DNA from: a virus
Lineage: Duplodnaviria > Heunggongvirae > Uroviricota > Caudoviricetes
Length of the DNA: 4,201 bases
Reading direction: 5' to 3' (one strand)
Virus record (IMG/VR): IMGVR_UViG_2675903661_000013
Span: 1-4,201 of that record
Shown: piece after piece, positions 1,840-4,201 of the stretch
Numbering within the stretch: position 1 is the stretch's first letter
How the letters are laid out: every line of letters starts with the position of its first letter
Program-made: the position numbers

Positions 1840-4201
1840 TGAGCTGTTGTTCTTTTCAGCGCAGGTAACTGGCAGCTCTGCATACTTGTTATATTGCGCA
1901 TAAAAAACCGGGGAGCAGGGCGTTACTCCCCGGTAAACATACAGACCAGACAATGATACCACACTGCCAGTTATTATTATCATGACATAAGTCAGCGCAG
2001 GGAATATTAGTGCATGCACATGTCTGGTTTCTTTGATCTCACAACGCTTTTTTTGTGAAAAGAAAAAAGATGAGGCACTGAAATCACAGTTTTATTTAAA
2101 TGAGTGGACGTTGATGATTATTAAGAGTTTTAAGCTATACACCCCTGAAAAATCTGACGTGCCGGGTGCGATGTACCTGAAATCAGTAGACGGCAGGGAC
2201 TGGTACGAAAGCCAGTCATTATTCGCGGCAGACACGCTGAAGCTGGTTTATGACAGTAACGGTATAATCACCAGCATAAGTAAGGATGTCTCTATGCTGT
2301 GGCCGGTAAACCAGAGTGTGGCAGAGGTTGCAGATACGGAAGAAAACCGCAAAGCTGACATCTCGGGGCGCTGGGGTTTTGACGGGGAGAAAATCACGGA
2401 CCTGCTGACCGCGGAGAAAGCGCGCGGGATGAAGGGCGATGAAATTAACGCGTGGCGTAATGCGATGGAGGCGGCGAACTACACGTTTGAGCACAATGGC
2501 CGGAAATGGGACTACGGGAAGTCAACGCAGACGCGTCTTGAGCCATCGGTGGCGGCGGCGAAAGCGGGGAAACTGCCGGAGGCGTTTTTCTGGACGGATG
2601 CGGAAAACAATGATGTGGAGGTGACAGCAGAAGAGCTTATAGCGTTGAGTGAAGCGGCAGGGCAGGCGATGTTCACCAAAGGGATGGAAATCCACGTTCG
2701 CCAGCGCACCATGAAGAAAGAGCTGGAAAAGCTGACCAGTGCGGATGAGATACTGGCATACAGGGTTGGCTGGGCACAGGAGTAATTGGTGGAAAAGAGG
2801 GATTGTCCCTTTCTGTTTTTACTGAAAGAGTCGTAATAATTACGCAGGGAAATATCATGGCTGAACTAAACAGTTAAATTTTGATGATATTGTGATGTTG
2901 CTCAGAAATTACAGTGTAAGCAGATGTGAAATATCCAGCGGCATGAGATCAGTTTTTTATTTAGTATTGCTCTGCCTTGTGCTCCAGTATTTGGAGTAAA
3001 GGTGTAAAAAATACACTAAGATATTTCCTAAAAATTAAAATTAAATTTGTGGGGTTTTTTAGGAATATCCTCATGGGTGCCGAAATACATCAGATTTTCT
3101 TTATTCATCCGATGTATTTCGGTTTGTTTGTATACAAATAAATTCATGAGGAATCATACATGGATAAGTCTTTATCACGAAGTGTTATTTCCGTTGTTAT
3201 TGGCGGTATTTTATTTGGTGTAAGCGCTGGCGTTCTGGCTCAGGATGCAGCGGAGAATAAGCTTATCGCCTCAGGGAGTATCCCAGAAAATACAGATCTT
3301 TCTGCTTCAGCTCGCGCGGATGGAGAGATTGCGCTAGCTGTTGGTACAGGGGCCAGCGCGGATAAAAAAATTGCAACATCAGTGGGATCATGGTCTGCAG
3401 CACGAGGACAGCAAAGTGTGGCTTTAGGTGGGGGAACATATGCTTATGCAGATGCATCTACAGCCCTGGGAAGCATTGCATTTGTTGATAACACGGCTAC
3501 ATATGGCACGGCAGCAGGTAACCGAGCCAAAGTTGATAAAGATGCAACAGAAGGTACTGCGTTAGGGGCAAAGGCAACAGTAACAAATAAAAACAGTGTT
3601 GCATTAGGAGCTAATTCACGCACAACCCGTGACAATGAGGTTTATATCGGTTATGAAGCAGAGCCGGGTAAGGCTTATAAAACCCGGGTGCTTGGTGGTC
3701 TGAGTGACGGTACTCGTCCCTCAGATGCTGCAACCGTTCGTCAGGTTGACCGTGTAAAAGACAGTGTTGAGCAACTGGCTCAGGATACGAATACCCGCCT
3801 TGTGGTTGAAGCGAAAAAGTCTCGTGAATATACAGACTCCAGAACGACAGTTGGTGTTAACTCCGACGGAACCCTGACCCGTGCAGAAGGAGCCAGCAAA
3901 ACCCTGGCTGTTAATGATGGGCTTGTAGCTTTGTCCGGCAGAACAGACCGTATTGATGCTACTGTTGGTAGTGTTGACCGCCGGGTTACTAAAAATACAC
4001 AGGCGATTCAGTCCACTTCCCGTCAGTTGCAGGAGCACAACACACGTCTGAACAGTCATCAGCGTCAGATTAATGAAAACCACGAAGAGATGAAACGTGC
4101 GGCAGCCCAGAGCGCAGCGCTGGCAGGTCTTTTCCAGCCGTACAGTGTGGGTAAATTCAACGCCACTGCTGCCCTGGGGGGGTACAGTGATAAACAGGCT
4201 G

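Follow-up and report, generated by a model that had tools for sequence, protein, structure and literature searches.

Why should two tail-fibre genes that usually lie almost end to end be held 271 nt apart, and why should the space between them carry a hairpin whose poly-U tract faces against the direction of both? The question is raised by a 4,201-nt stretch of viral DNA (hereafter the window; positions 1 to 4,201 of IMG/VR record IMGVR_UViG_2675903661_000013), which is part of an Escherichia coli lambdoid prophage and in which stf, the side tail fibre gene, is followed at a distance by tfa, a gene of tail-fibre-assembly type. The answer proposed here, to which we would give an even chance on the strength of the sequence, is that the 1907-1934 hairpin works as an intrinsic terminator of leftward transcription and is situated in the non-coding trailer of a mobile cassette that encodes the receptor-binding tip of the fibre.

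The core of the hairpin is formed by the pairing of CCGGGGAG (1908-1915) with CTCCCCGG (1926-1933). The perfect stem extends to 9 bp through A1907/T1934, reaches 11 pairs on folding as minus-strand RNA, and contains 7 G-C pairs around a loop of 6-10 nt. Directly 3′ of the stem on the minus strand, TTTTTATG constitutes the U-tract; the plus-strand tail, TAAACATA, is not U-rich and fails the U-tract test. The folding energy is -20.9 kcal/mol (z score -4.9) for the minus-strand RNA and -17.7 kcal/mol (z score -3.4) for the plus-strand RNA. A strong hairpin with minus-strand poly-U had been picked out in the first-pass annotation and is borne out as the strongest terminator-like structure of the region: when 20 kb of a prophage with the same cassette were scanned, it came out top of the 41 terminator-like sites, and when the window was shuffled 1000 times with dinucleotides preserved, only 3 of the shuffles contained, on either strand, an equally strong terminator (at least 9 perfect pairs, a loop of 3-10 nt, and at least 6 T in 8). 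By its form, the hairpin would act as an intrinsic terminator on leftward (minus-strand) transcription alone and would stop no RNA polymerase other than that coming from the tfa side, antisense to the late genes; because its plus-strand version has no U-tract, rightward late transcription should pass.

The long non-coding gap in which the hairpin lies is real, measuring 271 nt where 270 bp had been claimed, with stf ending at 1842 and tfa starting with an ATG at 2114; RefSeq annotation of near-identical DNA places no feature between the fibre gene and the DUF4376 gene. The accompanying claim that stf and tfa are normally tightly linked also holds, the true intergenic distance in 50 related loci being -1 to 68 nt. 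Apparent gaps of 233 and 236 nt in related loci are filled by a 74-aa Tfa-like open reading frame (ORF) matching tail-fibre-assembly PHROGs, and one of 358 nt (locus L032, 2142-2501) looks like a frameshifted stf, since the tip reading frame continues into the gap; that frame is the one found in the allele with the 68-nt spacer. Long non-coding spacers are thus confined to the window's own version, allele A (271 nt), and a related allele B (349 nt).

The gap is also rare. By BLAST it is present in 8 of 5426 complete E. coli genomes, each copy at least 99.7% identical and always inside the cassette, and its known carriers comprise these 8 genomes, 4 IMG/VR contigs, and 1 metagenome contig, with the tip cassette as the sole context; among 185,579 GTDB species representatives there were no matches. 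Diverged homologues were sought through the tip protein and a structured DNA pattern in E. coli genomes, phage GenBank records, IMG/VR, metagenome contigs, and GTDB species representatives, and this search returned near-identical copies and the single allele B only. Two genomes, NZ_CM143724.1 and NZ_AP045170.1, hold two cassette copies each, the second copies lying outside the backbone that matches the window.

How the gap came to lie in this prophage can be read from two sets of relatives. The window matches a sipho-type backbone (locus L020, with gpJ, hok, stf, tfa, and a YadA-like gene) at about 98% identity over 1-1602 and 2114-4201, and it matches Stx-like podo-type prophages with an N4-gp56-type capsid (loci L001 and L002, together with IMG/VR and metagenome contigs) from 688 or 1552 to 2773. 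Against the podo-type donor L001, there are no mismatches at all in 1552-2451; against the backbone-type prophage, 26 positions differ within 2125-2233, and donor-type tfa sequence therefore extends to at least 2233. From these patterns of single-nucleotide differences, crossovers are placed at 1551-1602, within the collagen repeats, and at 2234-2451, within tfa, so that the gap is interior to the exchanged block. The first-pass annotation had offered the gap as a possible recombination junction at which tfa was joined to a different fibre gene, and had proposed a comparison with related prophages for a homology breakpoint coinciding with it; this reading is not supported, as both breakpoints fall outside the gap, which sits within the mismatch-free donor block.

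The fibre tip, the gap, and the start of tfa are thus exchanged together, and the breakpoints show exchange through the collagen repeats on one side and tfa on the other. The cassette consists of the tip, the trailer, and the first ~120-340 nt of tfa, a rare and horizontally exchanged unit that passes between co-resident lambdoid sipho-type and Stx-like podo-type prophages by homologous recombination. Such an exchange resembles known tip exchange in lambdoid tail fibres, where the receptor-binding C terminus and adjacent DNA are swapped via conserved flanks (here the collagen repeats and tfa); the difference is the long non-coding trailer, other alleles of this tip family having spacers of 30-42 nt. 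In the 3′ half of tfa, from 2452 to ~2770, the window differs from backbone and donor types at mostly shared positions, which points to a contribution from a third parental sequence, and its exact combination occurs in none of the complete E. coli genomes of the collection. The window is therefore a three-way mosaic recombinant, or possibly an assembly chimera across prophage repeats; irrespective of that question, the tip-plus-gap block itself is found in the 8 complete genomes.

The same comparison bears on the idea that the gap is a recombination scar, or the remnant of a small mobile element such as a miniature inverted-repeat transposable element (MITE) or an IS200-type end, that came to lie between stf and tfa. 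A 10-nt direct repeat and, adjacent to it, a 10-nt perfect inverted repeat surround the hairpin; a weak Rfam match to STnc290 falls in the gap; and the tfa start codon marks the precise end of the unalignable block. STnc290 is a small RNA expressed next to IS200 (PMC2515195). Each of the two repeats has a nominal chance value of about 0.05 within the gap. Allele B, however, has no clear counterpart of them and no matching repeats above chance; for a target-site duplication with terminal inverted repeats, moreover, they lack symmetry and occur as a single copy. The STnc290 match scores 18.6 bits (E = 9.6), far under the gathering score of 60, and is the best Rfam match in the gap. A copy of IS200F resembles the gap on neither strand: its end hairpins are unrelated, and alignments of gaps A and B, both strands included, stay within the range of shuffles. 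Nor does the gap behave as a MITE or repeated palindromic element, its sequence having turned up, in the genome, virus, and metagenome searches, within cassette copies only, and thus not being multi-copy. With the crossovers lying outside the gap as well, this explanation is largely refuted, and we consider it very improbable.

The tip that travels with the gap is 77 aa long and belongs to a family of at least six alleles (A to F). Alleles C, D, and F have 14 extra C-terminal residues (…EYVSSGASGFEYFPL) and a spacer of 41-42 nt, and in allele E the C-terminal tail is a different one and the spacer is ~30 nt long. Alleles A and B are without the 14-aa tail, end right after '…VG/IGI…', and are followed by the long trailers. 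Allele B (locus L068) occurs in 10 genomes, and both alleles have been seen in sipho-type and in podo-type prophages. Their tips share 56% amino acid identity, and the third positions of conserved codons are 63% identical. Against this divergence, the two trailers are collinear and share a single clearly conserved island, which consists of the A-run and the hairpin. Its local alignment score is 35, compared with 18.3 +/- 2.1 in 500 shuffles; in global alignment, the island has a z score of 8.0, while the right flank reaches a marginal 2.2 and the left flank -1.3. This contrast between island and flanks argues for constraint on the hairpin together with its A-run.

Hairpins of the same design recur elsewhere in these prophages. 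An orientation-neutral pattern, GGGGAG-N6-14-CTCCCC, finds at least six further distinct sites in the related prophage loci that were fetched, against a chance expectation, by rough arithmetic estimate, of fewer than 0.1 in comparable non-redundant sequence. At every further site, the late-gene strand bears an ATAAAAA-like run, which the other strand reads as a T-run. Only one adjoins an annotated minus-strand gene, that at 8854-8872 of L020, which is placed 10 nt downstream of a DinI-like gene and is therefore an ordinary terminator there. It shares with the gap hairpin the GGGGAG...CTCCCC stem, the ATAAAA run on the late-gene strand, and the orientation; it differs in directly following an annotated minus-strand gene, whereas the gap hairpin has no upstream gene or predicted promoter. 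Several of the others occupy the interval from tfa to the adhesin gene and have no annotated feature upstream. Given that the recurring hairpins all face the same way, the gap hairpin is most economically read as a working leftward terminator; it is an unannotated new instance of a familiar kind of element.

The sites of this hairpin type (A-run, then GGGGAG(C)-loop-(G)CTCCCC) in late or accessory regions of prophages of Shiga toxin-producing E. coli (STEC) include 12208-12235, 13089-13104, and 15431-15449 in L001; further ones, besides that in L020, are at 3173-3190 in L056, at 3057-3074 and 3225-3244 in L073, and at 7410-7427 and 10070-10088 in L107. In L001, tfa has one reverse hairpin on each side. 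At 15300-15600 of the same locus (and identically at 9933-10240 of L107), a 41-aa hydrophobic ORF matching phrog_9340 (unknown function) faces a convergent minus-strand unit with a possible 24-aa ORF and an AGGGGA Shine-Dalgarno sequence, the terminator abutting the stop codon of the 41-aa ORF; this layout resembles a type I toxin-antitoxin pair or a small-peptide locus.

What a leftward terminator would be doing between two rightward genes admits two roles that are the most likely. It could act as a barrier, whereby antisense transcripts begun within or to the right of tfa would be kept out of the fibre and tail genes; alternatively, a very short leftward RNA begun inside the gap could have its 3′ end here, in the manner of the oop RNA of phage lambda. 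The oop terminator is a strong intrinsic terminator between two co-directional genes, directed against the operon; the antisense RNA that it ends is 77 nt long and starts from a promoter immediately upstream of the next gene. As a reverse-facing terminator in the spacer of co-directional phage genes, it is the closest analogue in arrangement, although it belongs to the early region and the gap hairpin to the late/tail region, and the two have no sequence similarity; the gap hairpin, moreover, has no predicted consensus promoter. As the gap terminator is 65 nt past the stf stop codon, its RNA would not overlap the stf coding sequence, unlike the oop arrangement. We infer here both that termination takes place and where the terminated RNA would come from.

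It is the source of that RNA which is the weak point of the explanation, and a number of results weigh against a functional leftward terminator. A transcript starting within or just upstream of tfa had been suggested in the first-pass annotation, and the minus-strand promoter search of 1934-2200 proposed along with it gave no sigma-70 consensus match; a consensus scan of the minus strand over the whole window likewise found no sigma-70-type promoter, and relaxed scans yielded weak -10/-35 pairs or post-hoc candidates only. No ORF on the minus strand of the gap has a Shine-Dalgarno sequence or matches a family, and Rfam, searched with the window at a limit of E = 10 and with four related loci at the gathering score, gave sub-threshold matches only. 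Allele B is no firmer ground: its hairpin has a stem of 6-7 bp, a loop of 9-11 nt, and a U-run beginning 4 nt past the stem, and it was not called in a terminator scan. It folds slightly better as plus-strand RNA (-19.9 kcal/mol, as against -17.7 kcal/mol on the minus strand), and its two base-of-stem pairs (C-G and G-U) form on the plus strand only, the minus strand having an A-C mismatch. The allele B gap has no excess structure on either strand, and as the core stem is identical in both alleles (n=2), what is observed is conservation without covariation. In one allele B context (L099, 5438-7918), the prophage ends right after tfa, and the genes that come next (one of the YkgJ family, potB, and potA) are without exception minus-strand genes, whose transcription runs towards tfa and the hairpin; there, they would be a natural source of antisense read-in.

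Several of these points are also what would be expected if the trailer were a fossil, left from an earlier arrangement and containing a hairpin that is now functionless and decaying; the donor might, for example, have been a phage whose late genes ended with the tip gene, opposite a convergent minus-strand gene that had this hairpin as its terminator. The allele B hairpin would then be a degraded terminator, and the lack of any promoter or gene feeding the hairpin would need no further explanation. That A and B are both without the 14-aa tail and 30-42 nt spacer of C to F fits a single ancestral replacement downstream of '...VGIGE', and the same type of hairpin does serve the convergent DinI-like gene at a prophage end. 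Uniformly neutral DNA, however, would not be expected to preserve an island with a z score of 8-10 between flanks of marginal or no alignability. Nor was the minus-strand coding remnant that such a history might have left detected, either by tblastx with the two gap alleles as queries against every fetched locus or by six-frame ORF, Pfam, and PHROG searches. We regard a fossil origin as somewhat unlikely, while taking it seriously.

Other features of allele B could instead point to an element of the sense-strand mRNA, that is, a barrier to 3′ exonucleases or a processing signal that would stabilise the stf message and uncouple stf and tfa levels. The hairpin is stable as plus-strand RNA in allele A too, and the plus-only pairs and better plus-strand fold of allele B are in keeping with this; in both alleles, tfa has a weak Shine-Dalgarno sequence and is far from stf, and translational coupling would therefore be lost. 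Repetitive extragenic palindromic (REP) hairpins between malE and malF are intercistronic mRNA stabilisers of this kind and similarly provide a stable hairpin between two genes of one operon; the gap hairpin differs in not being a repeated element, and its conserved A-run and orientation would go unexplained. The same holds for the run on the same side of all related hairpins. The sole natural variant of the stem, 1911 G>A (locus L006), retains a G-U pair in the minus-strand RNA and breaks the plus-strand pair to an A-C mismatch. Over the whole of gap A, moreover, folding is in excess for the minus-strand RNA (z score -5.2), whereas the plus strand is not unusually structured (z score -1.9). 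The conserved A-run, the 1911 G>A variant, and this minus-strand-only excess of folding favour the minus strand as the relevant one, and a role in the sense-strand mRNA appears quite unlikely to us.

A more ambitious version of the short-RNA role is that the cassette carries its own leftward RNA gene, with the receptor-binding module travelling together with a linked riboregulator that would act antisense to the stf-tfa intercistronic mRNA, or in trans through Hfq. This would start from the candidate extended -10 at 1961-1953, from which an RNA of ~45 nt, ending near 1902 at the hairpin, can be speculatively predicted, and would have a differently seeded counterpart in allele B. At the aligned position, allele B has TGtAAAAAT, 17 nt from its hairpin, which would likewise give an RNA of ~45 nt, and the candidate elements of the two alleles are 17-21 nt from the hairpin; both were recognised post hoc, and ~0.3 such elements are expected per gap. 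No conserved RNA body or seed was found upstream of the terminator: the stretch from hairpin to tfa has a z score of 2.2 between the alleles, and the 13-nt stretches just 5′ of the hairpin differ between A and B. We hold such a riboregulator to be unlikely.

Small RNAs from comparable surroundings are on record. PasB of E. coli is a prophage small RNA encoded among structural genes (bioRxiv 10.64898/2026.05.13.724894), and IsrG, opposite the Salmonella tail-fibre gene STM2243, forms a sense/antisense pair with the tail-fibre mRNA, the two being inversely expressed (PMC2330248). The likeness to the gap is a 3′ stem-loop and poly-U tail amid phage structural genes; the difference is that the gap has no Rfam match to IsrG or any other family.

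A number of other candidates within the gap were set aside. A 66-aa minus-strand ORF (2019-1819) is rejected as a gene, as it crosses the terminator, has no Pfam or PHROG match, and is not conserved in allele B; the other gap ORFs are at most 26 aa long and have no Shine-Dalgarno sequence. Weak similarity of the gap to the hok 3′ region proved to be merely another GGGGAG hairpin. Read-through of the stf stop codon or -1 frameshifting at 'A AAA AAC' is discounted because the site is 51 nt past the stop codon, with no spacer before the hairpin, and because, in allele B, the stf stop is followed 8 codons on by a further stop in the same frame.

The features on which this account draws are collected in Table 1.

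Table 1. Positions of genes and sequence features in the window; L068 is the allele B locus.
Feature	Position	Strand	Basis or remark
stf, side tail fibre gene, 576 aa	112-1842	+	ORF list; Pfam PF08400, PF03406, PF01391; phrog_366
Receptor-binding tip, allele A (variable part of stf travelling with the gap)	1603-1842	+	Homology to L020 stops at 1602
Gap, non-coding trailer of the tip cassette, 271 nt	1843-2113		Without an ORF having a family match or Shine-Dalgarno sequence
10-nt direct repeat TCAGCGCAGG	1856-1865 and 1992-2001		Brackets the hairpin
10-nt perfect inverted repeat TAACTGGCAG/CTGCCAGTTA	1866-1875 and 1964-1973		Brackets the hairpin
Island conserved between alleles A and B (ATTGCGCATAAAAA-ACCGGGGAGCAGG..ACTCCCC)	1893-1931 (L068 2266-2306)		Alignment compared with shuffles
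Intrinsic-terminator-like hairpin	1899-1934	-	Stem 1907-1915 / 1926-1934; loop 1916-1925; U-tract from 1906 down to 1899
Candidate extended -10, TGgTATCAT	1961-1953	-	19 nt upstream of the hairpin; post hoc
Promoter-like match ATGATA-16-TATTAT, the sole consensus match in the window	1953-1980	+	Directed towards tfa; 1 found compared with 3.9 expected, not above chance
tfa (Tfa/DUF4376 gene), 223 aa: tail-fibre-assembly-like N terminus and DUF4376	2114-2785	+	Pfam PF14301; phrog_11571, phrog_136
YadA/Eib-type trimeric autotransporter adhesin gene	3160-4201 (begins 3160)		Downstream of tfa

Around the cassette, the window begins just 3′ of a Hok/Gef family gene (window 1-111; L020 3828-4110). 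Positions 8-97 give a sub-threshold Rfam match of isrK type (17.2 bits, E 1.9), and at 66-97, CCGCAG...CTGCGG followed by T8 forms a terminator-like hairpin on the plus strand, 15 nt ahead of the stf start codon; stf would therefore need read-through or a promoter of its own. The fibre is composed of a Prophage tail fibre N-terminal domain, two Phage_fiber_2 repeats, collagen-like repeats, and the small C-terminal tip, with a further, sub-threshold match to PF06820. A 108-nt direct repeat within stf (684-791 and 1236-1343, 80% identity) corresponds to the two Phage_fiber_2 repeats and, with the collagen repeats, offers many substrates for in-frame recombination.

Downstream, AGAGGGATTGTCCCTTT followed by CTGTTTTT at 2796-2812 forms a terminator-like hairpin on the plus strand, 11 nt past the tfa stop codon, which probably marks the end of the late transcription unit ahead of the adhesin gene. 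The latter is preceded by a 374-nt spacer of 30-36% G+C and looks like a lysogenic-conversion ('moron') gene. Within 3080-3122, ~40 nt upstream of its start, is a 16-nt inverted repeat, CCGAAATACATCAGAT / ATCCGATGTATTTCGG, whose arms are 94% complementary and 11 nt apart and are followed by TTTGTTTG; it could be an operator or a terminator/attenuator.

If the gap hairpin works as predicted, it would show a prophage shielding its tail-gene operon against antisense transcription or, alternatively, a host-range cassette taking a small antisense RNA along with it; in that event, it would add to the growing list of RNAs hidden in the structural regions of prophages. The scattered reverse terminators of STEC prophages may matter more than this single site, since their always facing the same way suggests several unannotated leftward units or barriers in regions that are annotated as purely rightward. 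For work on host range, the mapping shows the exchangeable unit to be the tip together with its trailer and the 5′ end of tfa, and not the tip alone.

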